64,000 bases of DNA. Origin: a virus. Lineage: Duplodnaviria; Caudoviricetes. Shown piece by piece: positions 6,038-28,327 of the stretch. The position numbers were made by a program, and so were the translations under genes. The notes under the pieces are model-generated. The model searched no databases. It worked only from the letters and a program-made list of their open reading frames with translations, and was not told where the DNA came from. The stretch's first letter is position 1. Each line of letters starts with the position of its first letter. Location of the stretch: positions 64,001 to 128,000 of the IMG/VR virus record IMGVR_UViG_3300028833_000057; one strand, 5' to 3'.

Positions 6038-6562
6038 TCAGATTTCATTTATACTCTTAATAAATAAAGCATCTTTATCATTAAAATGATTAAATATCCA
6101 TTTTGCTTTATATGCTTTAGCTTCATGATTATTTAATCCAGGATTATAATCATAAATAATATTTCTAATTCCTGCATCTAATAATTGGATTGCGCAAGCT
6201 GCACATGGATATGCAGTCACTACACATATTAAAGATGGAAAATAATAATTATGCCATCTATAACGCATACTATTTAATGCAGAAATTTCTGCATGAGTAA
6301 CTATTTCTCTTTTATTAAGAGTAACGCCGTTTCCGATATCAACATCCTTCTTCTCCCAAATAGAAGAAAAAGAAGAGTCGCATGAAAGTCTAATCGGGAG
6401 TATATTGAACCCTCTGGAAATACGATTTCCATTAGGATCCAATATACTACACCCGATTTGGACTATTTTATCTTCAGACACTTGTTTAGCCAAGGTCTTC
6501 AGCTCGTTCATTTCATCAAGCAGCTTTCTTTTTAGAGATAGTGAAAAGTTCATTGTCTTCAT
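6038..6562 (-). CDS. dCMP deaminase family zinc deaminase
   Basis: HAE and PCAAC zinc motifs, GFN motif, 'LLDAGIRNIIY'. Confidence 0.85.
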   Translation of the reverse strand: MKTMNFSLSLKRKLLDEMNELKTLAKQVSEDKIVQIGCSILDPNGNRISRGFNILPIRLSCDSSFSSIWEKKDVDIGNGVTLNKREIVTHAEISALNSMRYRWHNYYFPSLICVVTAYPCAACAIQLLDAGIRNIIYDYNPGLNNHEAKAYKAKWIFNHFNDKDALFIKSINEI

Positions 6563-7547
6563 AATTGAAAGTTACGGAAACAAGATCTTTCTCCTTCTCT
6601 AATTCTGCATTATTTAATGCAGCCAAACGCTGAAGATAAGGAATCATAAGGTTAGATACTCTAGGATTGGTTGCCAAGAACATTCTCACCCAATCATTAA
6701 GGGTACGGGCAGAAACTTCTCCAATCATATCCTTAATATTTTCGAATATCGCCTTAATATTAGTCGTAGAATTAAGTTCTACAGTTCCACGAGTAATATG
6801 ATAAAGGAATCTGCAGAAGCTCATGTCTGAATCTTTAAAATTATTCGTATCGAGAACTTTATCTCCATAATACGCAATCTTGCCTTCAGTATGCAAGTTA
6901 TCAACTTCATTAAGAGCCATGTTTGCCAAACGCTTGTTATCTACTGGCATGTCTTCCACCTTTAGGACAGTTAGAACGTTCTTAATTATATCTAATCTTT
7001 CTAAAGTAATATCTACATTATCTGTAATTAATGCAAGAATTGCAGGATAATACTCATGTGTAGATTCTCTTGAATAATGCGCTAATTCTGCAAGTATATC
7101 TGCAGACAATGCAGTATCCGTACCATCATACATATTAAGTATCATAAATCCATTAATAGAACGCGCATTAGATGCTATAAATTCAGTTATTAGTATCATC
7201 ATGAAAGCTAAGATATCATATGTATCACAGCCTTCAAAAAACGCTTCTCTATTTGCATATTCAATTTCTTCATATGTAAAATAATCCTTCATATTATCAT
7301 TCATTACCATTGCAGTACATAAACGATCATATACTTCAGGATTTTTAGGCATAAGTTCATCATCAAAAAATTCTGTCAATAAGGCATTTGTATTAAGATA
7401 AATGAACTTTTCCGACGGATCTCTATAGAGTAAATTGAGGCACTCATTCTCAATAACATTCTCAGTATTATCAATAATGCGTGCCGCCAATTTCTCTTTA
7501 TATAAACCCATCGCAATTACGCCATTCATAATAGAATGGAGATTCAT
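6516..7547 (-). CDS. hypothetical helical protein directly downstream of the JAB gene
   Basis: 343-aa ORF starting 3 nt after the JAB stop codon. Confidence 0.7.
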   Translation of the reverse strand: MNLHSIMNGVIAMGLYKEKLAARIIDNTENVIENECLNLLYRDPSEKFIYLNTNALLTEFFDDELMPKNPEVYDRLCTAMVMNDNMKDYFTYEEIEYANREAFFEGCDTYDILAFMMILITEFIASNARSINGFMILNMYDGTDTALSADILAELAHYSRESTHEYYPAILALITDNVDITLERLDIIKNVLTVLKVEDMPVDNKRLANMALNEVDNLHTEGKIAYYGDKVLDTNNFKDSDMSFCRFLYHITRGTVELNSTTNIKAIFENIKDMIGEVSARTLNDWVRMFLATNPRVSNLMIPYLQRLAALNNAELEKEKDLVSVTFNYEDNELFTISKKKAA

Positions 7548-7550
7548 GAT

Positions 7551-8246
7551 TTACCAGTACCATGCACGTCTGGGTTTGATTTTCTTCTTCTTAGATTTCT
7601 TGTTCCAATTAGCAGTACCACCATAGTAACTACCGTAGTAATTACGACCATAAAGCTGATCATAATTATAACCAGTAGAAGTGTAGCCATAGTCTTTCCA
7701 AGAAACCTTTTCTTTGAATAATTCTTCAGTTGCGCCATTTTCAGCAGCTAAAGCTTTAGCAGCTTTAAGCCGTTGCATAAATGTTGTCGCGTCTAAATTT
7801 TCTGCACACTTTACGTCTGCAGGTATATGTACAAATGAACCATCTGCAATCTTGATAGTAATAACACCATCAGGTGTTTGACCACCATCAAGGAAGATAA
7901 ATGATACATCAAAATCTTTATTAACGTATTCCCAGTCAGTTCCTGAGAATGAACGACAGCCGCTCGGATGCCTATGACATGCAGCATTGTAAATCTGCTT
8001 ATCAGAAGCATACTCATCAAAGGCAATGCTTGCAGCAGTAACATTCTGCTTAGGCATTTCCCAGACTTCTGGAGCAATGTTAGCTGTTAAATTTTCTAAA
8101 TCTATATCTGCACTTAAGAATAAACCATATTCTTGACCATGACTAAAATCGCAAAATGCTTGCATGGTTCCCAGAATATCCATCGGCACTAAAATTGTGC
8201 CACGCTTGAAATACTTGTCGCCAGTTTCTAATGCGTACTTTCCCAT
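7551..8246 (-). CDS. JAB/JAMM (MPN+) metallo-isopeptidase
   Basis: Catalytic Glu (QEYGLFL), 'PKQNVTAASI', and HRHPSGCRSFSGTD matching HxH-x7-S-x2-D; Tyr/Gly-rich then basic tail. Confidence 0.88.
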   Translation of the reverse strand: MGKYALETGDKYFKRGTILVPMDILGTMQAFCDFSHGQEYGLFLSADIDLENLTANIAPEVWEMPKQNVTAASIAFDEYASDKQIYNAACHRHPSGCRSFSGTDWEYVNKDFDVSFIFLDGGQTPDGVITIKIADGSFVHIPADVKCAENLDATTFMQRLKAAKALAAENGATEELFKEKVSWKDYGYTSTGYNYDQLYGRNYYGSYYGGTANWNKKSKKKKIKPRRAWYW

Positions 8247-8261
8247 GAATCTTGTTCCTTT

Positions 8262-8294
8262 AAAAAAGAAAGCCGTAGGGGTTTCCTACGGCTT
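8262..8294 (-). terminator. intrinsic terminator between the Ubl and JAB genes
   Basis: 10-bp stem AAGCCGTAGG/CCTACGGCTT followed by TCTTTTTT. Confidence 0.8.
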
Positions 8295-8312
8295 AGAGTT
8301 CAACAGCAGAGA

Positions 8313-8813
8313 CTAGGCGTTGAAAATTGCCGGTCTAATGACCAGGGTGTCGCCATCCTGGATTTCAGACGGAGCAATGGACTGACCGTTGCGGTACAAG
8401 TCAGCCTTGTTGATACGGTTAGAACTCATGAGGCGGTGCATTTCAGCCACGACATCTTCGGTGTTGGCACCGGTGATATCGGCTTCAGTCTGAAGCGTTG
8501 CGCCAGAGCTCATGATCTGCACATGAACATGCAGACCCTGAGAAGCGGCAACTGCGCTGGAACGAACAACGGTAGAAGTCGTTGCAGCAACGGCTTCAGC
8601 AGCAGTGTCCTTTTCCTGATAGGTACCAGAGATACCACCCGGACGGGACACGGTCAGAGCATCACGCACTGCCTTCACACGAGTAGCCTTCGTGACGATC
8701 AACGTCCACGAAGCGTTCAACTTTTCTGCAACCTGCTTATTGGTCAGGTGCGAGTTCCAAGTTTCGATAAATTCATCATTATCGAGCTGAGCCAAAGAGG
8801 TCTTCTGAGCCAT
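8313..8813 (-). CDS. ubiquitin-like (beta-grasp, ThiS/MoaD-type) protein with N-terminal HTH-like domain
   Basis: C-terminal 'LYRNGQSIAPSEIQDGDTLVIRPAIFNA' matches the ThiS/MoaD/Ubl ending (NG...LxDGDxxxIxP); Ala/Thr/Ser linker; N-terminal 'LTNKQVAEKLNASWTLI'; lies between E1 and JAB. Confidence 0.75.
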   Translation of the reverse strand: MAQKTSLAQLDNDEFIETWNSHLTNKQVAEKLNASWTLIVTKATRVKAVRDALTVSRPGGISGTYQEKDTAAEAVAATTSTVVRSSAVAASQGLHVHVQIMSSGATLQTEADITGANTEDVVAEMHRLMSSNRINKADLYRNGQSIAPSEIQDGDTLVIRPAIFNA

Positions 8814-8848
8814 CTTTTACTTCCTTTAAGTTTGTTAGGTTGTGAGTT

Positions 8849-9847
8849 TTAAGATGCAAATTGTGCTAAGAGTCCTTCGCACTTAGCATCCTTAAGAGAT
8901 TCACCCGTCGGTTGATTCACCGGGATGAATTTACTGCGAAATCCAAATCTATAATAATTCTTATCTATGTTGCCTTCAATTACAGGAGTAGATAATATCT
9001 GCTGTACATCGTTAGCAAATAATGCTTGAGCATAGGGTCCTAGTCTGTGCTCAAATACTATATCATTCTTCACATGAGAATTCACTTTATAATATAAAAG
9101 TGAACTTTCATCCAACTCAATACTTTTATCATCTGTAACAAACTTAAAGGCATCATCAAGCAATCCAGCAAGTCTTTCAACTCGGTCAATAACCATCAGC
9201 TTACCTACTACTAAATTGTTGACGGCTAAGCTAAGTCTAGATTTTGCACAGTGTTTAAGATACCTTTTCCAAATAAGTTCACCCACAGACGTATCAGCAA
9301 GAATAGGTGCTACGTTAATAATATAGTCAAGCACCGAAACATCTGCGAGAATTATGTCTTTAACAAATTGACGAATCTCGCTGAACATTTCCAGACATAC
9401 TCCAAATGCATCTGGATTTTTCCATCCATAATTATCACTTGTAGTAAATAGGACTAATGTTTTTGCAGGATCTGTCTGAATATCTTCAGAAGCAGAGATA
9501 ATAAGCGCCGTTAAAGCTTCCCTATACTTAATGCACAGAGCAGCAAATAATACTTTCTCATATTCTTCGTGTTCTGAAGTAAATGTAACTACTTCATAGT
9601 TTTCACTATCAAGAATACCGTCATCGAACTTTTCCCTATACAAGATAACATTAGGGATAAATTCCAGCATACTCTTAAATACATGAATGAATGAACTTGC
9701 AATCTGTACATATGCGGTCATATTACCTTCAAAGGTATTATTATCGCTATACAGTTGGTTTCTAAGTGTGTTATAAAGAGGAGCAAAGTCGTTTGTTATA
9801 CGACTTGTAAGCTCATCTTCTTGTATTAAAACATTTACTACAGCCAT
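8849..9847 (-). CDS. uncharacterised protein inside the Ubl operon
   Basis: 332 aa, translationally coupled to E1 (TAATG overlap at 9847). Confidence 0.75.
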   Translation of the reverse strand: MAVVNVLIQEDELTSRITNDFAPLYNTLRNQLYSDNNTFEGNMTAYVQIASSFIHVFKSMLEFIPNVILYREKFDDGILDSENYEVVTFTSEHEEYEKVLFAALCIKYREALTALIISASEDIQTDPAKTLVLFTTSDNYGWKNPDAFGVCLEMFSEIRQFVKDIILADVSVLDYIINVAPILADTSVGELIWKRYLKHCAKSRLSLAVNNLVVGKLMVIDRVERLAGLLDDAFKFVTDDKSIELDESSLLYYKVNSHVKNDIVFEHRLGPYAQALFANDVQQILSTPVIEGNIDKNYYRFGFRSKFIPVNQPTGESLKDAKCEGLLAQFAS

Positions 9848-10560
9848 TATACCTCCACAATAGCTTCATTGATAACTTCTTCGAGGTTAATAATGATCTT
9901 AGTGGTTTTCTTGATCTTTCTACCCTCACCGCAGATCCAAGAAGCAGGGAACTTCTTAAGAATTCCAGCAAGGATTTCGCAGACCATTGCAGGCGGTATA
10001 TAGAAGCTTGGTGTAACTTCATAGCCAGACTGAACATTTACAGAAAGTGTCTTCCATACGCCTTCAGTCGGGTTAAAAGTGATACACATGATATTACCAC
10101 CGTTGTAAGACAGTTTCATATCAATCTGTTCGAACATAACACCTGCATCAAGTACGTCACGACAGTCAATGACAATCGTTTTATTACGCATTCTTGCATC
10201 TGAATATGTACTAGGTGTTTTAAATACCGCCTGTACATTATCAGGTTGTGTTCCTTCATCAGCAGCTTCGTTAAGCGGTTCTGCAATCAATTCATCAAAA
10301 TTACTTACTCTTTCTTTCTTTGTAGAAACACGAGTTTCCATCGTTCTTTTACAAAGTTCTTTAATCACATCTACTTTATACTTGTTAATGGAGCTAATAG
10401 GAACAGGAATTCTGTTCATATTAGAAATCTCCATAATGTCATCATCCATGATATACATGGCTGTATTTCTATCAATAATTTCGTCGAGCATTCCAATGGA
10501 AAGAGGAATATTACCACCAATTCCACCTGCTCCGAGTACTACGATTCGCTTGATATCCAT
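9847..10560 (-). CDS. ThiF/MoeB/E1-like adenylyltransferase
   Basis: IVVLGAGGIGG nucleotide-binding loop, DDDIMEISNMNR, KYKVD, IVIDCRD. Confidence 0.9.
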   Translation of the reverse strand: MDIKRIVVLGAGGIGGNIPLSIGMLDEIIDRNTAMYIMDDDIMEISNMNRIPVPISSINKYKVDVIKELCKRTMETRVSTKKERVSNFDELIAEPLNEAADEGTQPDNVQAVFKTPSTYSDARMRNKTIVIDCRDVLDAGVMFEQIDMKLSYNGGNIMCITFNPTEGVWKTLSVNVQSGYEVTPSFYIPPAMVCEILAGILKKFPASWICGEGRKIKKTTKIIINLEEVINEAIVEV

Positions 10561-10564
10561 AGGA

Positions 10565-11401
10565 TCATCCTAAGTAAGAATGTGGTTTAAACATATCTTT
10601 CCTTCCGTAAATACTTCCTTCAGGAGAGAAATGGAATTCATCGCCATTATTATTGTAAAATTTTCTATTTTCAGAATATGCAGATGTCATGTTGACACCT
10701 TCCATCAAGGTAATAATATCTGATATGTGCAACTTGTTAAGGATAGTAGATCCAGCAAGAGTACCCATACAGATCTTTCCACTTTCGTATGCCACATTAG
10801 GATGCTTCAAGATATGATCACCCTGTTCATCCCAGTATGCATATGCTACAAAACTCATATTTTCAAGTTTGCTAGCAGAACCTGTAGAGACACGAATACC
10901 AACACTACGCATAGTGTGTTCTTTATCTTTACGAATTCCTTTAGGGCCGTCAAATATGCAATCAAACAATTGTGCATGATTACGGTCATCTAAAGATGCA
11001 TAGATACGCTTCCAGTGTACAGGATGCCTTAGCGTGAATACCAAGAAATCTGAAGCTTTTCTAATAATCTTAATGACTGGACACTTTGTATCAGAAGCTG
11101 CCCATTCATTATATTCTGCAATATCCGCATCATTAAATGCCCTGATGCCACTGTTATGGCCACCATTATTATTGCTATTTTGAATACGTTCTCGCATAAT
11201 TCTAGGAACAATATGCCCTAGAGCCTTATGCTGCTTTTCAGCCATAGATTCACAAGATATCAGAAATGGCCCACTACTTATAGACACTGATCCATAAATT
11301 TCGTTGCCATCAACTTCATTTCTAAATGTTCCACAATCTTCACGATTATTATTCGTGTCTATTGCAGAACTAAATTGGGATAAAAAGTCTCTAATTTCCA
11401 T
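10565..11401 (-). CDS. E2/UBC-fold ubiquitin-conjugating-like enzyme
   Basis: HPNVAYESGKICMG matches the HPN...GxIC active-site motif, followed by 'LMEGVNMTSAY'; likely start MEIRDF at 11401 with GAGGAG RBS. Confidence 0.78.
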   Translation of the reverse strand: MEIRDFLSQFSSAIDTNNNREDCGTFRNEVDGNEIYGSVSISSGPFLISCESMAEKQHKALGHIVPRIMRERIQNSNNNGGHNSGIRAFNDADIAEYNEWAASDTKCPVIKIIRKASDFLVFTLRHPVHWKRIYASLDDRNHAQLFDCIFDGPKGIRKDKEHTMRSVGIRVSTGSASKLENMSFVAYAYWDEQGDHILKHPNVAYESGKICMGTLAGSTILNKLHISDIITLMEGVNMTSAYSENRKFYNNNGDEFHFSPEGSIYGRKDMFKPHSYLG

Positions 11402-12020
11402 CGTCAAGGATCTCCTCAACAGTTGTTTCAAAGTCTTTATACCTACTAAAATACGGCATAAGATTCTCCATAATGTTGGTGGTGACACCCATCTTAAAGA
11501 GTTCATAAGAGAGCATGGTATTATTATCATGACGAATATTTCTATTCACAATGAAATACACCATAAGCAAATCTCTAATATACGATCTTATGCTTACAAC
11601 ATTATCTTCTTCTGGAAGTTTTACATGTTTCGGGTCATTACAAAAGTGAATACCACTTTTAAGGAAAGTGTAATATTCTTTGTATACCGGGATCTTGGAT
11701 TGATTCCAAAATTCTTCAGCACGATCTTCTGGAATAATAATTACGTCACCAGAAAATTTCCGGTCTGCAGCGTAATGTTTAAAGTCTGGGCGTAGATCTG
11801 CAAGATTATACTCCATTCCACGAGCATAGATCTTATTCATCTCCACAAAATCTTTTTCTACAAGATTAATATTTTCTTCATTAATAATTCTAATTAATTT
11901 CTTAACCCCAACCATTACCAATGGAAGAAGGAAACGATGTCCGGATGTCTGAAGATACGATACAGAATCCGGAATTTCTATGCCAGGACATCTGTCCTGT
12001 CTGTCGTTAACGGAAATCAT
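11391..12020 (-). CDS. uncharacterised first gene of the Ubl operon
   Basis: 209 aa, AAGGAG RBS, overlaps the E2 start. Confidence 0.75.
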   Translation of the reverse strand: MISVNDRQDRCPGIEIPDSVSYLQTSGHRFLLPLVMVGVKKLIRIINEENINLVEKDFVEMNKIYARGMEYNLADLRPDFKHYAADRKFSGDVIIIPEDRAEEFWNQSKIPVYKEYYTFLKSGIHFCNDPKHVKLPEEDNVVSIRSYIRDLLMVYFIVNRNIRHDNNTMLSYELFKMGVTTNIMENLMPYFSRYKDFETTVEEILDDGN

Positions 12021-15709: not shown

Positions 15710-16300
15710 ATGGACAATAGAACCTGTGCTTTAATGAATATAATCTTAGCTAGAAAACGATTAATGGATGCAAACGCAAAAACTAATGTTGATATGGATA
15801 TAAATTATATTTCAAGACGAGATTTTAATAGTTATGCGGATGATATTATAATATGTAATTTTGATCTAACATTTCGTTTTACCGATAAAGGTTTTAATGA
15901 GTATTATTTCAAGAATGCATTTCCATGTGAAAAAGTTTTTGAAAGTATAAAGAATGAATATGCAGCTGGAAGAATTCCTAATGATTTGTGGTTAATAAAT
16001 CTTCGTGTAGGATTGCCTAAAAAGATTTTTCCATCAGAATCATCTATGGAACATGATTTTATTAATCAGATAATAGATAATAATCCTTTAGTAACTATTC
16101 AGCTTATGGATATAGAAAAATTCTATGCATGGATACCTAAAGAATTTGAAAAGTTTATAGGAAAAACTGAAACTGAGGAAGACAATCTTTATGCTGCTAT
16201 GACATGGAAATATTTTCCTGCAATTTCAGATGATAACATTACAAGATCAATTTACTTAATGAACACATTTGCAAAATGTAAAGACTATGTAAATAGGTAG
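15710..16300 (+). CDS. hypothetical protein
   Basis: 196 aa, GAGGA RBS. Confidence 0.7.
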   Translation: MDNRTCALMNIILARKRLMDANAKTNVDMDINYISRRDFNSYADDIIICNFDLTFRFTDKGFNEYYFKNAFPCEKVFESIKNEYAAGRIPNDLWLINLRVGLPKKIFPSESSMEHDFINQIIDNNPLVTIQLMDIEKFYAWIPKEFEKFIGKTETEEDNLYAAMTWKYFPAISDDNITRSIYLMNTFAKCKDYVNR

Positions 16301-16303
16301 AGT

Positions 16304-16927
16304 ATGGCTATTCCTAAATCTGAGTTAGAATATAGGACTGAACCAGATATTAATTTAAAATATGTAAACGATCTTCTGCTTAGGCTCTTAATATTATTTC
16401 GAAAATATTATCCACATGACCAATATGGAGAGAAAATACTATTTGATATAGTACCTACTTATCATGGAGATGCTAATAACTTTGAAATATCCATACGAAC
16501 AGAATCTGAAGAATTTGCAAGAAAGTTCTATAAAAGATTATTACCAAAGATAGATATTCCACAACATTTCACATGTTCTAATTGGTTTATAATTGGTATT
16601 AATTTTGAAGTAAGAGGTTATCAATTACCATATTGGAATGATACCTCTCATTTGAGAAGAAGAATTCTAGAAAATATTATACCACTTATATCTCATGCTG
16701 AAGTAAGTAGAGTAGCATGTTATTTACCAAGATTTATAGATAGTGCAGCTTTTATTAATGAAAACTATTCAGCTAACTTTAAAGTCAAAGAATTTGAATG
16801 GTTAAGTTTTAATTATAAATACATTATTGCAGGAGCGATTGGTCCATATTTGGGAGCAATTTCTATGCATGTATATGTAGATGAGTTAGAAAAATATATG
16901 AAAGAATTATTGAAAAATAAAGGCTAA
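16304..16927 (+). CDS. hypothetical protein
   Basis: 207 aa, coupled to the previous gene. Confidence 0.7.
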   Translation: MAIPKSELEYRTEPDINLKYVNDLLLRLLILFRKYYPHDQYGEKILFDIVPTYHGDANNFEISIRTESEEFARKFYKRLLPKIDIPQHFTCSNWFIIGINFEVRGYQLPYWNDTSHLRRRILENIIPLISHAEVSRVACYLPRFIDSAAFINENYSANFKVKEFEWLSFNYKYIIAGAIGPYLGAISMHVYVDELEKYMKELLKNKG

Positions 16928-17037
16928 TTAGCCTTTATTTTTTCTATGTTCCGTAAAATTTCTAAGATCCATATTATATTAAATCGTGAAGTAAGACACA
17001 ATAAAGACAATTCAGTCTTATTGATTCTACTTGCAGT

Positions 17038-17493
17038 GTGGTAACTGCACGTCTTACTCAAGGAGCTATCATGTATATGGCAACTGATAAACCCTTTACG
17101 CATTCCCAAGATGCAGTTCTTGCTGAGCGTTTTGAGAATTATCTTAACAACAACACTGAAATGACAGAGAACGATAAATTCGCCTTTCGTGAATATGTTA
17201 CATATAAGTCACTCCATGACTGTTATGCACCGCATGTTACAACTGAAATGAAGTATCATTCTGTGGCACAAGGTCTGGGTTGTCTCCTAATGAACGGCAG
17301 TCTTTACGATCATAGTCATGAAGACTATACTCACTACGATAAGTATATCCGTGAAATTAAGGAATTGTTTAAAGATGTTGTGCAGATTAAAGCTATTTGT
17401 ACGTTATTTTTAAATCCCAACCGCAGTGAAAAAGATACATTCTATAAAATCCGTGACTTAACTTGGGCTAGTTGTGCAGACTGGGCAAAGTAG
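17038..17493 (+). CDS. hypothetical early protein
   Basis: Promoter TATATTAAA at 16975-16983; true start probably 17071 (AAGGAG RBS). Confidence 0.7.
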   Translation: MVTARLTQGAIMYMATDKPFTHSQDAVLAERFENYLNNNTEMTENDKFAFREYVTYKSLHDCYAPHVTTEMKYHSVAQGLGCLLMNGSLYDHSHEDYTHYDKYIREIKELFKDVVQIKAICTLFLNPNRSEKDTFYKIRDLTWASCADWAK

Positions 17494-17616
17494 CATCAAG
17501 GCTAAATTAAAAGAATTGCTCATCTTCTAGATGGGCGTTCTTTTTTTCTATGATCCCTCATATAATTGACAAAGTATATATAAACTTTCCATTGAAATTA
17601 AATAAGGAAAGTTTAT

Positions 17617-18384
17617 ATGCCATCTTCTCAAGCTGAAATATTTTTGATTAATACTTCTGCTAGTCAGGCTAAACCTTCGATTATTAGACAAACTGATAAA
17701 GAAATTGAGTTTAGAACAATCTGGCAGCATGGTAATGTATTAAACCGTAATAATAAGATTTATCCATCTGACATTATTTGGAACGCTGCGCAACAGGCTC
17801 CTATTCAGGAACAGCTAAAGCGTAGATGCTGGTATGGTGAAGCTAACCATCCGATGAGTCCTTCTATTGAAAGACAGTTGTATACTGATATGCATAATGT
17901 CTCTCATACAATTTTATCTTTTGAAAGAGAAGGCGATATCTTTAAAGGTAATGCTCTTACTTTTGGTTCTGCTATGGGGCCATCTATGTATGCTGCTATT
18001 GATCAGGGTGGCATTATTAGCTTCTCTCTTCGTGGTTTGCATAAGTTAGTTAGAGATCCTAATGACCAACGTAGAATGTTAGTTAAAGATCTCCGCATTT
18101 TTTGCTATGATTGGGTCACATTCCCGTCTCATGAAGATGCACATATGATCCCAGCTAATGAATCTGCTAAGATCTTTGAAAAGAGAATTCCTAAGGAACT
18201 CATTAATACCGTGATGGCTAGTGAAAATGCTGGTATTCTTGAACAGTATGAAGACTTCCTTGATGAAGAAATTAAGGATACTTCTATTGAAGATAATAGC
18301 TTAATTCTAAAGTCTGCTCATAATACTTTGAATATTAAGCTAAAGAATAGAATTACTAAAGATATTCTTAATGAATTTTTCTAA
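17617..18384 (+). CDS. prohead core/maturation protease (T4 gp21-like fold)
   Basis: NRNNKIYP, WYGEANHP, NVSH, FSLRG, YDWVTFPSH motifs; late promoter AACT-TTCCAT-TG at 17583-17594. Confidence 0.85.
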   Translation: MPSSQAEIFLINTSASQAKPSIIRQTDKEIEFRTIWQHGNVLNRNNKIYPSDIIWNAAQQAPIQEQLKRRCWYGEANHPMSPSIERQLYTDMHNVSHTILSFEREGDIFKGNALTFGSAMGPSMYAAIDQGGIISFSLRGLHKLVRDPNDQRRMLVKDLRIFCYDWVTFPSHEDAHMIPANESAKIFEKRIPKELINTVMASENAGILEQYEDFLDEEIKDTSIEDNSLILKSAHNTLNIKLKNRITKDILNEFF

Positions 18385-18418: not shown

Positions 18419-19303
18419 TTATCTTTTTTGGTATATTGGCTTATATGGTAAATCTCTTGTCTTAAGTAATTGTAAAACATTATCATAGCTTTTACCAGAT
18501 TCTTTGGACATTTGTTTTACTGTTTTATCTGGACTATACCATGTAAGATCTGAATTACGAACCATGCGTACACGCTTATATGGTAGATTAAGGCGTATTA
18601 ATGCATTTCTAATGCATCCTGCTTTGACACCGCTTTGCTTAGCCATTTCAGGAACAGTTTTATTGGCATCATACCACCAAGATAAATCATCATAATTCAA
18701 TGGATCTTTTATTATACCTTGTAGATTATACTTATGAGCTATCGTCCTTACATGTTTCTCACTTATGCATAACGTTTTAGCGATAATATAAGCAGGCTGA
18801 CCTTGCATCTTTATGATTTTATCAGCTAAATCTTTTGATTTAGCATCTTTAATAGATTGCTTTTTCTTGAAATATTCGTCAGATAATCCACTGGATATTA
18901 TTATTTGCCTTATGCTTTCATGAGATAATCCTGCTTTTTCTGCCATTTGGCGCAGAGATAATGTAGGATCATACCATGATGGCTTAGACAATATTTTATG
19001 ATGAACTTCTTTTTTATATGGCAATTTAAGTTCATTCAAGATTGTATATATCGCAGAAGTATACGTTCCAGATATCCTTGCCATTTGGCGAACAGTAAGC
19101 TTTTTATCATACCAGTCTTTCAAATTGGAATCTGCTATTTGTCTTACCTTTTTATAAGGTAAATTTTTGGTTATTAATGTATTATAGATAACCATAGGCT
19201 TTTTACCAGCAGCCTTAGCCATTTCTCTGACTGTCAACTCTGGTGAATACCATATAGGTATTTTTGATGAAACTCTATGATGAATTCGGTTTAAATCTTT
19301 CAT
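18419..19303 (-). CDS. tandem HTH-repeat ('PEWY') protein, paralog 1
   Basis: About 6 units of WY-x4-T-xx-(E/Q)M-x4-G-x5-I-x3-L-x4-LPYK. Confidence 0.75.
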   Translation of the reverse strand: MKDLNRIHHRVSSKIPIWYSPELTVREMAKAAGKKPMVIYNTLITKNLPYKKVRQIADSNLKDWYDKKLTVRQMARISGTYTSAIYTILNELKLPYKKEVHHKILSKPSWYDPTLSLRQMAEKAGLSHESIRQIIISSGLSDEYFKKKQSIKDAKSKDLADKIIKMQGQPAYIIAKTLCISEKHVRTIAHKYNLQGIIKDPLNYDDLSWWYDANKTVPEMAKQSGVKAGCIRNALIRLNLPYKRVRMVRNSDLTWYSPDKTVKQMSKESGKSYDNVLQLLKTRDLPYKPIYQKR

Positions 19304-19400
19304 AATGGCTCCTTGTTAAAATTATTAAACCATTATTTAATATAAGCAAATTCATAAGAAATTTACAGAAAAATAAAAGACCATACGAAAGTATGGTCTT

Positions 19401-19898
19401 TTATACTGCTTCTCTATTTTCTAATTCCAAAATATAATCTGGTGGAGGATAGAGTGCTTTATATTGCGGTGATGCAAATATTTCTTGCTCTATATCATTC
19501 TTAACTTCTAAGAATATATGTAAGGCTACATGAATATTCTCAAATTTCTTTTTATATTTATATGGATTATGTTTATATTTGTCAGGTATGAATACATTAT
19601 CTTTTATAAATATTAGTAAGAAAGATTCTTTGATAGAATCAGGTAAAGTCCTGAATTCCAATCTATCTGTAGCCTTATCAAGATCTTCATCATAAGATTT
19701 ATAAAAGAAGTCTTCAGAAGATCTAGCTTCAGAAAATATCTCATATACTCTATCAATGACTATATTATTAAATAATTTCATTTCATATTCATCATCTAGG
19801 TTCCAAGCTCTATAATAGCTCTTTCTAACTTCAGGTAGACCATCGCTCTTAGCCATTTCCAAGAGAATATGCTTCATATAGTCTTCTAACATAAACAC
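19401..19898 (-). CDS. hypothetical protein
   Basis: 165-aa ORF followed by terminator 19377-19400. Confidence 0.65.
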   Translation of the reverse strand: MFMLEDYMKHILLEMAKSDGLPEVRKSYYRAWNLDDEYEMKLFNNIVIDRVYEIFSEARSSEDFFYKSYDEDLDKATDRLEFRTLPDSIKESFLLIFIKDNVFIPDKYKHNPYKYKKKFENIHVALHIFLEVKNDIEQEIFASPQYKALYPPPDYILELENREAV

Positions 19899-19919
19899 AC
19901 CTACCTTTATGGAAAAGTA

Positions 19920-20210
19920 CTATTTCCAAAATATTAAATAGTGTATATAATTTTTATCTTCTTCCGGTAAATAAAATTCATATTTACAAATTAATGAAAA
20001 TCCTGCAGCTGATAGTTCTTCAATAAACTTACTTTGTTTTGCCTTAGATACATCTACTTCAATTTGTTTTTCACATCTGCAAATTGCTTGTGTGACTTTA
20101 TGTTCGACATATCTGATAAGTGCATTATATGGTTTATCGGCTGGATCTACAGCACTCGCTTTAAGTTCATCATATATTTTAGTTAAAGGCTTCATGCCAA
20201 AATACCCCAT
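19920..20210 (-). CDS. hypothetical protein
   Basis: Small ORF in a minus-strand operon. Confidence 0.6.
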   Translation of the reverse strand: MGYFGMKPLTKIYDELKASAVDPADKPYNALIRYVEHKVTQAICRCEKQIEVDVSKAKQSKFIEELSAAGFSLICKYEFYLPEEDKNYIHYLIFWK

Positions 20211-20545
20211 TTATTGTGTAAAAGTTCGTTCATTCTTAAGCCAAAGATTCTATGTAAATTCTCTATTTTGCCATTAGAAGCATACTTCCAAACCTCATGG
20301 CTTAATTTATCCATTTTATCATGGATCTCTTCGTATTCCATTTTATTTAAAGGCTTAGTATCTAAAATATGACCCCAATGCCTAGCTTGCATTCTAAGTA
20401 ATTCACAGTAGTTTGATCTACTACGTTCAATATATTCTTTAGATGATATTAATTTGGTTTCGAGAGTATACAACATATGTCTACAGTCTAGAACTGTCTC
20501 GCAAGTAGCAAATGCATGCTCTAGTTCTTCATCAGTGAATAACAT
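20192..20545 (-). CDS. hypothetical protein
   Basis: AGGAG RBS, early promoter at 20567-20574. Confidence 0.7.
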   Translation of the reverse strand: MLFTDEELEHAFATCETVLDCRHMLYTLETKLISSKEYIERSRSNYCELLRMQARHWGHILDTKPLNKMEYEEIHDKMDKLSHEVWKYASNGKIENLHRIFGLRMNELLHNKWGILA

Positions 20546-20618
20546 AATTGCTCCTAATTTCAGTATTTAATATAAAAAATAAAACGGTATTCCATATGGA
20601 ATACCGTCTTATTTGGTT

Positions 20619-20894
20619 TTAGGATTCGTCTTTTCTTTTAAGTATAACTTCAGACTCATGTGTATCATCTAAGCACTTCTTTTCGCCATCATATCGTGCC
20701 ATTTCAGCAAGATGGAGATTAAGCTCAAAAAGTTTATCATACTGGCGTTTCTGGCTATTTAGTAAGGTTTTATAAATATCGGCCCATCTTTTCCAGTAAA
20801 TTGTACTCATTAGTAATAATGCTGCTGTAAATGCAAGGAAGATAATTATAATAACTAATTGTAAATTATTCATTTTGTTTTTCTTCTTTTTCAA
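20619..20894 (-). CDS. small membrane protein
   Basis: Hydrophobic stretch LVIIIIFLAFTAALLLM. Confidence 0.6.
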   Translation of the reverse strand: MKKKKNKMNNLQLVIIIIFLAFTAALLLMSTIYWKRWADIYKTLLNSQKRQYDKLFELNLHLAEMARYDGEKKCLDDTHESEVILKRKDES

Positions 20895-21381
20895 ATTTTT
20901 CTTTTAGTCTAAGGTAAGTCTTATACTCTGTTGCTCTTTTTCTTTCTTCATTCGCTTTATCAAGCATATTTTTATGGCGTTGTCTCTCTGCTTCTACACG
21001 CTCAAGAGTATCAATCCATCGTTTCTTAATTTCTAATAATTCTATATTACTATATTTCGAAAAGCGAGATATCATTAAATACATATCTTCATCGTCAGAA
21101 CTATCTATGTCTATATTATCATCTGCACTGGTGACATGTACTATAAAATAGTCTTCGCCTTTGGTAACTGTTTTCTTTAAGCGCTTAAAAGCACGAATTT
21201 CATCTAATGTAGTACTATCTGCTTGGCTAATACCTAACCCTGCCAACCATTGATCTATTATCATACTATATTTTACAAATATATCATCTGCTGTCATAAT
21301 ATTGGTGATATATTTTATTTTTTCTTCAAGAGCTTTATATGCTTCTTGAAATAATTTTTCTATTTCTGCAAAATCTCGCAT
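20866..21381 (-). CDS. hypothetical protein
   Basis: 171-aa ORF with charged coiled-coil end. Confidence 0.65.
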   Translation of the reverse strand: MRDFAEIEKLFQEAYKALEEKIKYITNIMTADDIFVKYSMIIDQWLAGLGISQADSTTLDEIRAFKRLKKTVTKGEDYFIVHVTSADDNIDIDSSDDEDMYLMISRFSKYSNIELLEIKKRWIDTLERVEAERQRHKNMLDKANEERKRATEYKTYLRLKEKFEKEEKQNE

Positions 21382-21827
21382 AGTAAGTAGTCCGGTTCAG
21401 TTAGTTTTATATATCCATCGTATCTATGGGCATCATCGCAATCACCCTTTGTGATACTCAAAGATGTTATTTCTTTAATACTGCTTAGAATTCTATCCTT
21501 TAAATATTTTGAAATTTGGCGATATTCAAAGTAGAAATTATCAGTACAATTATATGCTTTACTATCTACATCCAATCTAAATCCACCATCAAACGGAAGG
21601 AAGTTTATCCTATTCTCTGAAGCATAAGGCTTAGTTTTAAAATTAATAACAATTCTTATCTTCAGGAATTTTAAGACCCTGTCGCTATGTCCAGCAATGT
21701 AATCTTCTATATCTTTTATACACTTAGGAATTAGTTTGCATGTTTCGTCTACTTCTTTCTTTATCATCTCAAATCTTGTCTTATGCTTTTCTTTATAGTT
21801 TTCTACAAGCCTTTCTTCTATAGTCAT
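21360..21827 (-). CDS. hypothetical protein
   Basis: 155 aa, AGGAG RBS. Confidence 0.7.
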   Translation of the reverse strand: MTIEERLVENYKEKHKTRFEMIKKEVDETCKLIPKCIKDIEDYIAGHSDRVLKFLKIRIVINFKTKPYASENRINFLPFDGGFRLDVDSKAYNCTDNFYFEYRQISKYLKDRILSSIKEITSLSITKGDCDDAHRYDGYIKLTEPDYLLCEILQK

Positions 21828-21838
21828 ACTATCTCCTA

Positions 21839-22267
21839 TTAGTCACTATATAAACATTTTTGTACAACTTTATCGCCAAATCTTATTTCATTATCAAGCG
21901 GTGTTGGTGGTAATTCTATCCAGAATTCTATATCGTCACGTCGTATATCATTATGCTCATCATCAGTTAAATATGTATATACTGCACCATCACCGCCTTC
22001 ATCATTAAGACCAAAGCCTTCAATATGCTCGCCATCTTTATTAATTATAAGGAAATGATGTACATCCCATCCATCGATAGCATCATAGATATCTTCTTCT
22101 TTTTGTCTATGCCAAAACTTTTTAGCTAGCTCTTCTTTAAGTTCTTCTATAGCTTCTTTGACATCTTTATTATCTATTTTGAGATCGTCTACTTTAAATG
22201 TAACTTTATGCTCAGCATAAAATTCTCTAACAGACTTAGCTTCTCTAGTTGTAATTACAGTATGCAT
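21839..22267 (-). CDS. hypothetical protein
   Basis: 142 aa, AAGGAGG RBS, early promoter at about 22296. Confidence 0.75.
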   Translation of the reverse strand: MHTVITTREAKSVREFYAEHKVTFKVDDLKIDNKDVKEAIEELKEELAKKFWHRQKEEDIYDAIDGWDVHHFLIINKDGEHIEGFGLNDEGGDGAVYTYLTDDEHNDIRRDDIEFWIELPPTPLDNEIRFGDKVVQKCLYSD

Positions 22268-22312
22268 ATATCCTCCTTATGCTTAATTTCTTATTTTAAT
22301 ATAAAAAATAAA

Positions 22313-22328
22313 AAGCCCCGAAGGGCTT
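22313..22328 (-). terminator. repeated cUUCGg terminator AAGCCC-TTCG-GGGCTT (copy 1 of 6)
   Basis: Other copies at 24127-24142, 27001-27016 (1 mismatch), 28370-28385, 30012-30027, 32080-32095; each is followed by a T-rich tail on the minus strand. Confidence 0.85.
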
Positions 22329-22330
22329 GA

Positions 22331-22906
22331 TTATAATACCGCATGACTAAATTTTTTCTTAAAAGGTAAATTCCTATTCCTTAAATATCCATATATACAC
22401 TGTTCGGATAAACCAGACAGATAAGACATTTCGCTTAAATCTCTATCTGGAGAATACCATTTGCCTATTTCTATATCATGATCTTTTAATCTAAAATATT
22501 CTAACTTATGCTTATTTAAAAATGATTTAACATTAACCATAGGTATGCCTGACAAGAGACTCATTTCTTGTATCGTTAAATTCTTATTATAGAATTTAAT
22601 AAATTCATCGAATGAATACCTTTTAAATATATGATAACCTGACGGTCGTTGACATTTTTTATAATGCAATTTACTACTTCGCAATATATGATAAACCACA
22701 TCATAAGATAAACCAGATATAGCAGACATTTCATATATGGTTTTATTTTTATCGTACCATTCAGGTATTGATTTCTTTTTCTTATAGCTTTTACATTTTA
22801 AATTTAGTTTATTAAGATAATATGATATTGCGGTACGACATAATCCAGCTTTTTCAGACATTTCTCTTATAGTAAGCTCTGGATTATACCACTCTGGAAT
22901 ATCCAT
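22331..22906 (-). CDS. tandem HTH-repeat ('PEWY') protein, paralog 2
   Basis: 4 repeat units; colinear with the 191-aa paralog at 28387-28962. Confidence 0.8.
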   Translation of the reverse strand: MDIPEWYNPELTIREMSEKAGLCRTAISYYLNKLNLKCKSYKKKKSIPEWYDKNKTIYEMSAISGLSYDVVYHILRSSKLHYKKCQRPSGYHIFKRYSFDEFIKFYNKNLTIQEMSLLSGIPMVNVKSFLNKHKLEYFRLKDHDIEIGKWYSPDRDLSEMSYLSGLSEQCIYGYLRNRNLPFKKKFSHAVL

Positions 22907-23009
22907 ATAAACCTCCTATGCTAATGATTTACGAATATTCATTATTTAATATATATCGCGGTATATAGAAAATACGAAAAATAAAAAAGCGGCATTCCAG
23001 CCGCTAGAA

Positions 23010-24041
23010 TTATTTTGATCTGGCAAATACATGCTTAAAAAGAACTTCTGGATGGTTGATGTATAACCACCTTTCCATATTTTTATATCCGATACGGCAG
23101 ATCTTGGCGAATTTTTCAATCGTCATATCCTTATTCCAGAAAGATGCAAATTTATCTGGAACTTCAGAAAGATGATCTTTGAGTCTTCGCTTTTTCTTTA
23201 TCCAAAGTTTATCTGGGTGGTACTTTCTGAGCCAGTCTCTTACTGACGTAGGATTTGCCCCAATAAGATCACTATATTCTTTAATAGACATACCATCGTG
23301 CCAATGCTTCTGAAAATTTTCTTCGCTATTTTTATAGTTTCTATTACCATATCTTTTTTCTGGATGATATTTTGACATCCATTTATATACAGATACGACA
23401 CTAGCCCCTATAATATCGGCATATTCTTCATAAGTCATGAGGTCATTCCAGTATTTCTGAAAATTTTCTTCACTATTAATAACATCGGCCTTACCCTTTT
23501 TAAATTTTAAATTATGTCTTCTTAATAGTGCACCAAGAGTACGAAGTTTAATTCTAGATTCCTTTGCCATTTGATCAAGTGTTTTATTTGGATGATACCA
23601 CTCGCCAACCTCAAAAGTATTTTTATCTTTTACTTTCTTAAAAGGTAAATTTCTAGAAGTTAGAATCTTTCTAACTTGGCTATTGCTTAACTCAGATATC
23701 TTAACCATTTCCAAGATAGTACAATCCTTGTTATACCACTCAGGAATATCTTGTAGCGACTCTTGGCGAATATCATCAGCAGTCTTAAATTTTAAATTAA
23801 GATGCTTTAATAACGGATATATAGTGGTAACTCCTATCCCAGTCTCTTGAGACATTTGCGTAACGGTTTTATTGGGATCATATACTCGCTTAATATCTTC
23901 GCAGTGTTTATCTATTAGATGCTTATACTTTAGATTTCTTTTAAATATAAATTGTCTTATATTATGCTCAGAAATTCCAGCGCTTTCTGCCATCTGTCTA
24001 ATGGTTTTATTGGAATCATACCATTCTGGTAAAATGTTCAC
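23010..24041 (-). CDS. tandem HTH-repeat ('PEWY') protein, paralog 3
   Basis: 4 PEWY-type units plus 3 'ENFQKYW...WxxKYHP' units; GTG start at 24041 with AAGGAG RBS. Confidence 0.78.
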   Translation of the reverse strand: MNILPEWYDSNKTIRQMAESAGISEHNIRQFIFKRNLKYKHLIDKHCEDIKRVYDPNKTVTQMSQETGIGVTTIYPLLKHLNLKFKTADDIRQESLQDIPEWYNKDCTILEMVKISELSNSQVRKILTSRNLPFKKVKDKNTFEVGEWYHPNKTLDQMAKESRIKLRTLGALLRRHNLKFKKGKADVINSEENFQKYWNDLMTYEEYADIIGASVVSVYKWMSKYHPEKRYGNRNYKNSEENFQKHWHDGMSIKEYSDLIGANPTSVRDWLRKYHPDKLWIKKKRRLKDHLSEVPDKFASFWNKDMTIEKFAKICRIGYKNMERWLYINHPEVLFKHVFARSK

Positions 24042-24077
24042 GATTAGGCTCCTTGTTAGATGCAATAACATTATCGC

Positions 24078-24120
24078 ATCATTATTTAATATATGCTGTG
24101 GTACATAGAAAATACGAAAA
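24078..24120 (-). repeat. promoter cassette repeat (43 bp, 1 mismatch to 24478-24520)
   Basis: ATCATTATTTAATATATGCTGTG(G/T)TACATAGAAAATACGAAAA occurs twice, 400 bp apart. Confidence 0.9.
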
Positions 24121-24172
24121 AATAAAAGCCCCGAAGGGCTTGATATAGAACTAATATTTTATAAAATATCTT

Positions 24173-24442
24173 TTACAGTAGGAAGGATGGCAACGCATTA
24201 GATTCAATCTTATAAGATATTTTTTGTGAATTTGGTGAATAGCATTTCATTACCGTCATCTCTGAGGATGAACTTAGTTTCTTGCATTTTATCTCTATTT
24301 CTATACAACAATTGTTATTGAAACTTACATTAGCTGAAACGATAGATATATCATTCCCAAGATTCTTTACTTCTTCTATAAATGCTTTCTTTTCTTGAAG
24401 AATGTCATTCGTAGCTTTAAGTAAAGGATTATTTTTGTTCAT
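24173..24442 (-). CDS. hypothetical protein in a single-gene cassette
   Basis: Own promoter, RBS and terminator. Confidence 0.7.
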   Translation of the reverse strand: MNKNNPLLKATNDILQEKKAFIEEVKNLGNDISIVSANVSFNNNCCIEIEIKCKKLSSSSEMTVMKCYSPNSQKISYKIESNALPSFLL

Positions 24443-24519
24443 AATGGCTCCTTTAATAGATACAACGGAATTGTTGTATCATTATTTAATATATGCTGTG
24501 TTACATAGAAAATACGAAA

Positions 24520-24635
24520 AAAAAGACGTAGGTTTTGAAACCCCCTACGTCCATGCCACTTCCGTTCCTAAGGGCATTCTCTGCTCTGACCCATATTGGA
24601 AACTTGATTACTCAAGCAGAGCAATGGTTTCTTGA
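24520..24635 (-). ncRNA. structured 3' RNA element related to the 38.9-kb RNA
   Basis: TGCTCTG/CAGAGCA stem, CTTGA-GTAA-TCAAG GNRA hairpin, terminal hairpin 24525-24551; shares sequence with 38888-38906. Confidence 0.45.
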
Positions 24636-24811
24636 GGAAGTCTACAGTTATAAAGCTCATCAGTCTTAAGGATTCCGCAATACTTGTAGAACCACCAGAA
24701 GATCTTTTTATATACATATACTATATGATAAATTCTACGGTCAATTTCATGGCTATCGTCAATATACCACTTATATTTACTGGCTATTGGTTGTATTCTC
24801 GGAATCTTCAT
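24608..24811 (-). CDS. small hypothetical protein
   Basis: 67 aa, AAGGA RBS. Confidence 0.6.
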   Translation of the reverse strand: MKIPRIQPIASKYKWYIDDSHEIDRRIYHIVYVYKKIFWWFYKYCGILKTDELYNCRLPQETIALLE

Positions 24812-24830
24812 TGTAGACTTCCTTAAAGAT

Positions 24831-25427
24831 TTATTCGTCTTTAGTATGTAAGATAAAACTTACTGTATTAAGATACTGTGATACTGTAGGTAAGCCTATA
24901 ATGCTACGGATAATCTGCATGAAGTTACAAATGTCTTTAAGACCTACAACTGCACGGAATCCTTCGTGAGCACTATTTTTGGATTCGAAGATTAACCCAT
25001 GGCAACTATTCTTGCTATTTTCTACGGAAATTCTTAAGTCACCATACTGTAAAGGTGCAGGTTCTTTAATTTCCCTGATATCTATACAATCTAATTGCTT
25101 ACAATAATCAAATAGATTATAGAAGAATGTCTCATTAGAAGCCCAAGGGATTTCCATAAGCATTGCAGGACCTTCTTCTGCATTATTGATAAAGCATAAG
25201 GCATCATATGTATCATCGCCTTTGGCAAATGCCAAAGAACAGTTAGTGGGTACATACCATTCTTTATCTTTATATATCATATCATATGCAAATTGCGTAA
25301 AGTCTACGCCTTTATTGCCATCAGGTTGAACTGATTTAGTATTATAAATATAACCAAGCCTGAAGTTACAGGTCTTGGCTCTTTGCGTGTTTTGTCTTGT
25401 TGTCATTAATAACCTCATCTGTTTCAT
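24831..25427 (-). CDS. hypothetical protein
   Basis: 198-aa ORF. Confidence 0.65.
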   Translation of the reverse strand: MKQMRLLMTTRQNTQRAKTCNFRLGYIYNTKSVQPDGNKGVDFTQFAYDMIYKDKEWYVPTNCSLAFAKGDDTYDALCFINNAEEGPAMLMEIPWASNETFFYNLFDYCKQLDCIDIREIKEPAPLQYGDLRISVENSKNSCHGLIFESKNSAHEGFRAVVGLKDICNFMQIIRSIIGLPTVSQYLNTVSFILHTKDE

Positions 25428-25540
25428 TTAAAGTCTTATTACATTTTTCTATAACACTATCTCCAAAAATTATCTTTTCAAATATAATATAGAATTTCTC
25501 TAATAAGTAATCTATAGGATTATAATAACTTCTAGCCATT

Positions 25541-26814: not shown

Positions 26815-26826
26815 AAGCTTGGACTC

Positions 26827-26955
26827 TCAAAGTGCTTGCTTTGCAAAGTCATTAAGTACGCATGGATTAATCTGGTCAGCATCGAAAGTGATTCTATATT
26901 CTTCTATAAACTCTTGTGTGCCTTCAATACGTTTAGTACTAATTAAAGTGTGCAT
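26827..26955 (-). pseudogene. 42-aa ORF, probable truncated paralog of 21839-22267
   Basis: MHTLISTKRIEGTQEFIEEYRITFDAD versus MHTVITTREAKSVREFYAEHKVTFKVD; same upstream context. Confidence 0.5.
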
Positions 26956-27020
26956 AGATTCTCCGTGGATGTATTCGCTTAATTTAATATAAAAAAATAA
27001 AAGCCACGAAGGGCTTGATA

Positions 27021-28285: not shown

Positions 28286-28327
28286 AATGGCTCCTTTGTT
28301 ATAATGTAACTTAATTGTTACATCATG

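Follow-up and report, generated by a model that had tools for sequence, protein, structure and literature searches.

The 64,000-nucleotide (nt) stretch of DNA analyzed here, called the window throughout, comprises bases 64001-128000 of a 267,826-base-pair (bp) IMG/VR virus record, IMGVR_UViG_3300028833_000057, which CheckV rates as complete. On the minus strand of the window, at 8313-8813, lies a gene for a 166-amino-acid (aa) protein that consists of a probably helix-turn-helix (HTH)-like head, an Ala/Thr/Ser-rich linker and a ubiquitin-like (Ubl) beta-grasp domain ending in Asn-Ala. From sequence comparison and structure modeling we think it reasonably likely that this protein is the modifier in a ubiquitin-like conjugation pathway owned by the phage, which means that the phage probably operates its own ubiquitin-style tagging. 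The source is a jumbo phage with an overall guanine-plus-cytosine (GC) content of 33.5%, and it carries GroEL, RNA polymerase subunit and virion genes of its own.

The 166-residue protein and its family

The open reading frame (ORF) begins with ATG and stops with TAG, and its translation contains WNSHLTNKQVAEKLNASWTLIVTKA, an Ala/Thr/Ser-rich middle and the end DGDTLVIRPAIFNA immediately before the stop codon. Ten homologs at 59-83% identity have their start (MAQKT) and their end in common with the window protein, and a profile search of 1.84 billion representatives returned 40 proteins at E ≤0.001, mostly 160-230 aa long and of the same three-part layout. Because the homologs keep both start and end and about 40 distant representatives exist, these comparisons identify the ORF as a genuine gene and not a chance reading frame. 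We also considered stop-codon recoding as the origin of the odd C-terminus. This is ruled out, because TAA, TAG and TGA all terminate genes here (the three codons are all active, with 150, 39 and 20 uses) and a 73% identical homolog on the related contig L005 ends in FNA followed by TAA, not TAG.

The protein was modeled with AlphaFold2 using the family alignment, giving a mean predicted local distance difference test score (pLDDT) of 73.8. Helices are predicted at residues 12-19, 25-32, 36-45 and 47-52. The linker that follows ranges from 21 to 95 residues across the family, and the C-terminal part is built from strands 94-101 and 107-115, helix 118-131 and strands 137-141, 144-146 and 155-161. 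Foldseek searches of this beta-grasp against the PDB found Caldiarchaeum ubiquitin (6fj7, E 2.4e-3) as the best match, along with SUMO1-3 and NEDD8. VIA-align returned, among others, the Raf RBD, Smt3, SUMO1 and SAMP1 at Z 7.9 to 6.0, with root-mean-square deviations of 2.5-3.4 over 64-72 residues, all of them on residues ~90-166; SAMP1 matched at Z 6.0 with 21% identity. The viral and Atlas structure libraries likewise gave Ubls for residues ~90-166. Although the scores are moderate, the fold assignment is safe because the hit lists are uniform and the topology is textbook. The original prediction, made from the sequence alone, had described a helical module, an Ala/Thr/Ser linker and a Ubl end; this architecture is borne out by the translation and the AlphaFold2 model, and the ubiquitin-like nature of the last part is upheld by the predicted topology and by matches in all structure libraries.

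In family databases, the Ubl protein had zero matches to ThiS or MoaD at E up to 0.1 (Pfam, NCBIfam), and PHROGs, PADLOC and NCBIfam gave nothing useful for it. Pfam matches to Robl_LC7 and DegV were rejected, being sub-threshold and placed in the linker, and the sole match from a PDB profile search with the Ubl family was a spurious one to interferon (E 0.069).

The C-terminus has the pattern of Ubl precursors

For 29 family members, the most distant at 18% identity, we numbered the C-terminal residues from where the last strand stops, which in the window protein is Arg160. Residue +6 is Ala 22 times and Gly 7 times; at +5, Ala occurs 17 times, Gly 8 times, Asn 3 times and Lys once. Of these proteins 13 terminate exactly at +6 and none is shorter; the remaining 16 are extended by 1-13 unconserved residues, as in ...RGG/C, ...YAG/FAAL, ...TAA/CPSIS and ...KAG/GTDEEEISGGEEE, where the slash follows position +6. 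Within the close clade of the window protein, FNA either ends the chain or precedes AV, AK, MV, AV or KV. Gly-Gly occupies the two end positions in only 2 of the 29. The family-wide counts at +5 and +6 therefore make the "-NA" end one variant of a rule in which two small residues are followed by either a stop or a propeptide. The absence of Gly-Gly, which the original prediction had pointed out, holds, and a conserved small residue stands in its place.

That prediction had also counted extended homolog C-termini as evidence against a modifier. Such extensions are present, but they always lie beyond the invariant Ala/Gly, and the objection was wrongly framed: extensions past an invariant small residue support a modifier, since this is how Ubl precursors are built. 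BilA, for example, carries up to nine residues after its conserved Gly, and BilC trims them (PMC10557695). By sequence, the C-terminal pattern of the phage family is that of Ubl precursors. A terminal Ala has a precedent that the prediction gave correctly: Cap2 substrates have Gly or Ala as their last residue and vary in the one before it, as stated in Jenson et al. 2023 (PMC10097602).

Candidate partner enzymes are encoded in the same row

The Ubl gene is flanked by genes for an E1-superfamily enzyme, an E2-like protein and a candidate JAMM peptidase (Table 1). The 237-aa E1 matches Pfam ThiF at 1.7e-6, 0.3 bit below the gathering score, and the PADLOC models for Cap2-type E1-E2 proteins at 8e-6, which are weakly the nearest among defense models. 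A profile of the E1 matched UBA3 (5e-5), MccB (1e-3) and then UBA5 in the PDB, and GxGGxG, DxD, SNxNR and DxRD motifs are invariant among 12 sequences. None of its cysteines is invariant (C159 is present in 11 of 12 and C132 in 10 of 12), and it has zero CxxC pairs. All NCBIfam matches of the E1 fall far below their cut-offs, so that it reaches no curated family; in the PRTRC models (TIGR03734-03742) it scores 15.9 bits against PRTRC_ThiF, for which the cut-off is 144.75, and the other proteins of the row have no match to these models. The ThiF, UBA3 and Cap2-model matches together with the invariant ATP-site motifs verify, at the sequence level, that this neighbor is a member of the E1/ThiF superfamily.

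In the E2-like protein P201, N202 and C211 are invariant and H200 is not. Its FDGPxG and H200-P201-N202...C211 motifs are colinear, and both align colinearly to the UBC protein 2onu_A at a sub-threshold E of 1.4. A language-model search (Atlas) led to viral clusters with Prok-E2_D in 14-39% of their members. For the peptidase candidate, three sequences, the most divergent at 41% identity, all keep E39, H91-x-H93, S101 and D104, and the motif is also found in proteins of two short related contigs, L009 and L010. Homologs of this candidate match Prok-JAB at sub-threshold E values of 0.006 and 0.023, the window protein itself has no such match, and the Atlas lead was to viral clusters with Prok-JAB in 31% of members.

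We predicted the complex of an E1 dimer with the Ubl domain, which scored 0.48 by the interaction prediction score from aligned errors (ipSAE) vs 0.01 for the best control and was rated as "weak support". The mark used is passed by 58 of the 80 complexes of known structure and by 2 of the 110 mismatched pairs; passing scores of 0.60 or below came from only 7 of the 80 solved complexes, plus both passing mismatches. The runs agreed on at least 52% of contacts, with a partner pLDDT of at least 72. Because E1-Ubl complexes have already been solved, the pass may reflect likeness to known structures.

The association of these genes is conserved in other contigs. The row of 209-aa, E2-like, E1, 332-aa, Ubl and JAMM genes is syntenic in L005-L007, where the Ubl is 73% identical, and in the IMG/VR contig L011, where the Ubl is 40% identical and ends in ...YAG/FAAL. 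On L009 and L010, with Ubls that are 25-27% identical, a gene with the JAMM signature again lies directly 3' of the Ubl gene, and this adjacency is found in all five independent contexts that are legible at the DNA level; those of P0017, P0012, P0016 and P0025, either short or lacking DNA, are not among the five. Searching for related loci with a narrower family alignment yielded one locus, L011, and searching with the single protein yielded three short N-domain matches only. GenBank phage records gave no megablast match for window 7000-11000.

Table 1. Features of the Ubl gene row; positions are those of the window.
Feature	Position	Strand	Basis or remark
209-aa protein, family without assignment, first in row	11391-12020	-	conserved in relatives; L011 5839-6498 also has the NDRQERCPGI motif
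E2-like protein, 278 aa	10565-11401	-	colinear FDGPxG and HPN...C211 motifs
Minimal E1/ThiF-superfamily adenylating enzyme, 237 aa	9847-10560	-	Pfam ThiF, PADLOC and PDB profile matches
Conserved 332-aa protein between E1 and Ubl genes	8849-9847	-	syntenic in L005-L007 and L011
Ribosome-binding site AAGGAAG	8820-8826	-	Shine-Dalgarno sequence 6 nt upstream of ATG, from sequence
HTH-linker-Ubl gene, 166 aa	8313-8813	-	TAG stop at 8313-8315
N-terminal HTH-like head, residues 1-68; three/four helices and short hairpin	8610-8813	-	AlphaFold2 with family alignment
Disordered Ala/Thr/Ser linker, residues 69-91	8541-8609	-	pLDDT <50
Ubiquitin-like beta-grasp, residues 92-166	8316-8540	-	beta-beta-alpha-beta-beta-beta, fold searches
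C-terminal tail PAIFNA, residues 161-166; Ala166 the presumed reactive carboxylate	8316-8333	-	family alignment
Intrinsic terminator between Ubl and JAMM genes	8260-8294	-	hairpin then TCTTTTTT
JAMM/MPN+ peptidase candidate, 231 aa	7551-8246	-	motif alignment; directly 3' of Ubl gene
Conserved 343-aa protein, family without assignment, after JAMM gene	6516-7547	-	346-aa counterpart at the same position in L005
dCMP/cytidine deaminase, last gene of row	6038-6562	-	Pfam 2.8e-11

The 332-aa protein had zero family matches in Pfam, PHROGs, PADLOC and NCBIfam scans; it may serve as an adaptor or E3, or be itself a target. The dCMP deaminase gene is syntenic in L005, and nothing evident links it functionally to the Ubl module. 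Elsewhere in the window, at 44845-46272 and 47177-48838, are genes for an RNA polymerase subunit (phrog_25005) and a GroEL-type chaperonin (phrog_5725, 4e-96). Transcription and folding machinery of their own is typical of large phages.

The composition of the Ubl gene suggests high expression

The Ubl gene has the highest GC content of the 276 ORFs of the genome (52.3% vs a median of 32%), and its GC content at third codon positions (GC3), 0.56 vs a median of 0.23, is second only to that of a 104-aa ORF (0.57). The next ORFs by overall GC encode a virion structural protein and then the major head protein (phrog_20655, 1e-102). The island of high GC recurs on the Ubl gene in L005, L008, L009, L010 and L011, at 46-58% vs 30-42% elsewhere in each locus. 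Between the Ubl and JAMM genes the transcript would meet a hairpin, its 10-bp stem containing 6 G-C pairs and its loop 5 nt long, with TCTTTTTT after it; a hairpin and T-run occur at the equivalent place in L005, L011, L009 and L010, with no conservation of sequence. Because both the GC island and the terminator recur in relatives, these features suggest a very abundant tag and a scarce peptidase, with selection for high tag levels and attenuated JAMM output.

High GC3 sets apart a few genes, among them those for the major head protein (genome 206041-207870) and the virion structural protein (15710-18211), with further examples at window 29070-29384 and 42668-43780. By the same measure, high expression is also probable for several small GC3-rich ORFs (104, 82, 101 and 101 aa). 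Ahead of three small GC3-rich genes lies almost the same element, CGTAAAATTTCTAAGAyCC and then TTATATTA (window 29385-29500; genome upstream of 187498 and 187979). A TTATATTA/TATATTAA box is present upstream of other genes too, and this element is a probable phage promoter class. No early-type TTATATTA promoter was found within the 120 nt that precede the Ubl gene.

The best-conserved domain is the head, which is probably HTH-like

Within the family, conservation is stronger in the head than in the Ubl domain: W36 and R57 never vary, and N20, N25, L32, K42, G60 and G63 hardly do. The head has a median net charge of +3 among family members and is thus mildly basic. Direct matches of the head to Pfam HTH families are sub-threshold (HTH_24 at 0.14). 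The family profile does match proteins with 4-6 tandem units at E 3.8e-9 to 5e-4, and these in turn match GerE, HTH_23 and Sigma70_r4_2 at 1e-20 to 1e-32 and are bona fide HTH arrays. By hhalign, residues 8-46 align with one whole tandem-HTH unit over 39 columns (E 5.7e-5, 66% probability). Modeled alone, the head has a pLDDT of 78.6 and its fold matches are weak (best Foldseek E 0.06, to MarR/SmtB; VIA Z at most 4.3), and most of them are winged-helix or HTH DNA-binding domains: MarR, SmtB, the Sf6 small-terminase DNA-binding domain, Myb/SANT and resolvase. On this profile and model evidence an HTH-like fold for the head is quite probable. The original assignment of the N-terminal module to the HTH class is thus probable through its relation to tandem-HTH arrays by profile; direct Pfam matches are sub-threshold and fold matches of the head alone are weak.

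The nearest relatives of the head outside the Ubl family are the tandem-HTH metagenomic proteins P0026, P0031, P0033, P0046, P0048 and P0049. Their unit consensus is F-x3-W-N-x-G-x-S-x2-E-I-A-x2-L-G-V-S, to which the PEWY-repeat proteins of the window (18419-28962) are similar only generically. A loose resemblance of the head to the PEWY repeat unit had been noted originally; the comparison gave E 0.01 and 4% probability, no more than generic HTH likeness, and a closer kinship of the head with these repeats was rejected.

A nearly invariant R-x-G-G sequence at the end of the head (residues 57-60, window 8634-8645; R57 in all 29 members, G60 in 27) is reminiscent of the LRGG at the C-terminus of ubiquitin. 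In the model it lies in the hairpin (wing) loop, where it could be a DNA-contacting wing. That it might be a second, internal processing or activation site is speculative and less likely than the wing.

Comparison with known systems

The phage system would work like Bil and CBASS-type conjugation, yet it departs from both in several features. Type II Bil, an ISG15-like anti-phage system, consists of the Ubl BilA, the E2 BilB, the JAB peptidase BilC and the E1 BilD (Chambers et al., PMC10557695). The phage row resembles it in carrying E1, E2-like, Ubl and candidate JAB-type peptidase genes separately in one operon, and in combining a conserved small residue, presumably the reactive one, with an unconserved tail (0-9 residues in BilA, where the peptidase trims it). 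It differs in being owned by a jumbo phage, whereas Bil is bacterial and acts against phages. The Gly of BilA is universal (PMC10557695), in contrast to Ala in 22 of 29 phage family members, and BilD is large, having two adenylation domains, one inactive and one active, as well as a CYS domain and a zinc site, whereas the phage E1 is a single domain of 237 aa. The phage row also has extra conserved genes for the 209-, 332- and 343-aa proteins. Although bacterial Ubls with extra N-terminal domains exist (PMC11601603), an HTH-like head is absent from the N-terminal domains listed there for the Bil and Bub Ubls.

Cap2 and Cap3 of the type II cyclic-oligonucleotide-based antiphage signaling system (CBASS) act on a cGAS/DncV-like nucleotidyltransferase, CD-NTase or cGAS (Jenson et al., PMC10097602; Ledvina et al., 10.1101/2022.03.31.486616). 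The phage family shares with Cap2 substrates the Gly or Ala terminal residue (here Ala 22, Gly 7) and the variable penultimate one, its E1 is weakly nearest to the Cap2 models (8e-6), and in both a JAB-type peptidase, in the phage a candidate, is paired with the conjugating enzymes, the one in CBASS reversing the Cap2 reaction. The Cap2 substrate, however, is an enzyme without a beta-grasp, whereas the phage substrate would be a dedicated beta-grasp tag, and Cap2 is an E2-E1 fusion with a catalytic Cys in each part, whereas the phage E2-like and E1 proteins are encoded by separate genes. The row proteins that were scanned have no CD-NTase or effector family match.

With Bub (Ye et al., PMC11601596) the phage row has in common an E1 without a catalytic cysteine, varied Ubl architectures and a dedicated peptidase per operon, in the phage a candidate. 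Bub uses oxyester intermediates and a serine protease, whereas the phage E2-like protein keeps an invariant Cys and the candidate peptidase a JAMM metal-site motif. No sequence link between the phage row and Bub was found.

The SAMP/UbaA/HvJAMM1 system of archaea and TtuB/TtuC of Thermus work without an E2, and their modifiers end in Gly-Gly and double as sulfur carriers. Their small ThiF/MoeB-type E1, beta-grasp modifier and JAMM peptidase are like the E1, the Ubl and the peptidase candidate of the phage, as is the fold match to SAMP1; the E2-like partner and the Ala end of the phage system are not.

Proposed pathway and alternative explanations

In the pathway that we propose, the 237-aa E1 would adenylate the Ala166 carboxylate and the tag would then pass to Cys211 of the E2-like protein, possibly directly. 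Direct transfer from the adenylate is possible because the E1 has no invariant Cys, and Bub provides a precedent for a Cys-less E1 (PMC11601596). The tag would be isopeptide-linked to lysines of phage or host proteins, and the JAMM peptidase would trim the tailed precursors found in relatives and reverse conjugation. Since the head is the best-conserved part of the protein and mildly basic, tagging probably delivers a nucleic-acid- or partner-binding module to the target; a role as a degradation signal is unlikely. A more specific version, in which the Ala-ended tag is made in capsid-protein-like amounts and its DNA-binding head either tethers targets to DNA or forms a multivalent DNA-binding polymer by self-conjugation, is put forward tentatively and is rather unlikely. 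The original prediction had likewise suggested that tagging would tether targets to DNA, and that the non-GG end could keep the tag orthogonal to host E1/JAB enzymes; both ideas are speculative.

Several points weigh against a phage-owned conjugation pathway. The case for it is based on sequences and models throughout, and high GC3 is an indirect proxy for abundance. The E2-like and JAMM proteins have no curated-model match, Pfam Prok-E2_D and Prok-JAB find nothing genome-wide, and PDB profile searches with the JAMM and E2 alignments were negative or sub-threshold. The penultimate Asn is atypical, being found in 3 of 29 members, all from the close clade of the window protein. One relative, P0017, lies among large genes where a recognizable small E1 or E2 is absent. 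The neighbors of P0017, which ends in Gly-Gly-Cys, encode 734, 840 and 579 aa upstream and 405 aa downstream, and 579 aa is the size of a Cap2-type E2-E1 fusion.

The protein might instead be an abundant non-covalent DNA-binding or regulatory protein, acting in the nucleoid, transcription or packaging, whose beta-grasp is an interaction or dimerization domain that perhaps recruits the neighboring enzymes and is never conjugated. Beta-grasp domains often are not, and the better conservation of the head, with its invariant W36 and R57, median charge of +3 and relation to bona fide HTH arrays, would suit such a protein, as would a composition that suggests stoichiometric, capsid-protein-like amounts. 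We nevertheless consider this unlikely, as it leaves without explanation the Ala or Gly at +6 in 29 of 29 members with its end-or-unconserved-tail pattern, the JAMM gene next to the Ubl gene in every context legible at the DNA level, and the E1 and E2-like genes that travel with it. These same co-travelling enzymes bear on the idea of an anti-defense decoy, in which the Ala-ended tag would mimic the C-terminus of a host CD-NTase or BilA-type protein and, with the JAMM peptidase, saturate or reverse host Cap2 or Bil conjugation. Host Ubl systems do act against phages (PMC10557695 and the preprint 10.1101/2023.09.04.556158), the Gly/Ala end with a variable penultimate residue is the rule for Cap2 substrates, the E1 is weakly nearest to the PADLOC Cap2 E1-E2 models, and the tag is apparently in large excess over the peptidase. 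A decoy, however, has no need of its own E1 and E2-like enzymes, yet both are conserved alongside it; nor does the decoy reading give the conserved head a role. We rate the decoy as distinctly improbable.

The E1 could also activate the C-terminus for chemistry other than tagging, either to make a thiocarboxylate sulfur carrier of the ThiS/MoaD/TtuB type for nucleotide or tRNA modification, or for nucleotidylation of the MccB type. The best curated matches of the E1 are indeed ThiF-type adenylyltransferases, MccB is among its PDB matches, SAMP1, which is MoaD-like, is among the fold matches of the Ubl domain (Z 6.0), and a dCMP deaminase gene lies in the row. But sulfur carriers end in Gly-Gly whereas Ala dominates here, and Pfam and NCBIfam scans found no sulfurtransferase, rhodanese or desulfurase in the row. 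MccB chemistry requires a terminal Asn, whereas Asn165 is penultimate and not conserved beyond the close clade. With an E2-like Cys protein and a JAMM peptidase as the conserved partners, either chemistry is highly improbable.

Novelty and meaning

Our literature search, the coverage of which is incomplete, found no paper on a complete phage-encoded Ubl conjugation system, and a 2021 survey of jumbo phages (PMC7824862) makes no mention of one. The GC/GC3 signature of the Ubl gene and the terminator before the JAMM gene, both of which recur in relatives, are new here.

Ubl conjugation in prokaryotes has so far been characterized as host defense, in CBASS Cap2/Cap3 and Bil, or as probable defense, in Bub. 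If the phage-owned pathway is real, it would put the same chemistry on the phage side of the conflict. Its distinctive feature would be a tag that has a head domain and an Ala end and whose gene is apparently among those that a jumbo phage expresses most strongly. Both the Ala/Gly rule seen across the family and the combination of a plentiful tag with a scarce eraser can be tested directly, and the system would offer a tractable model for how a minimal E1 without a conserved cysteine hands its tag to an E2, what Ala-ended tags are for, and what non-degradative tagging does in cells without proteasome targeting.

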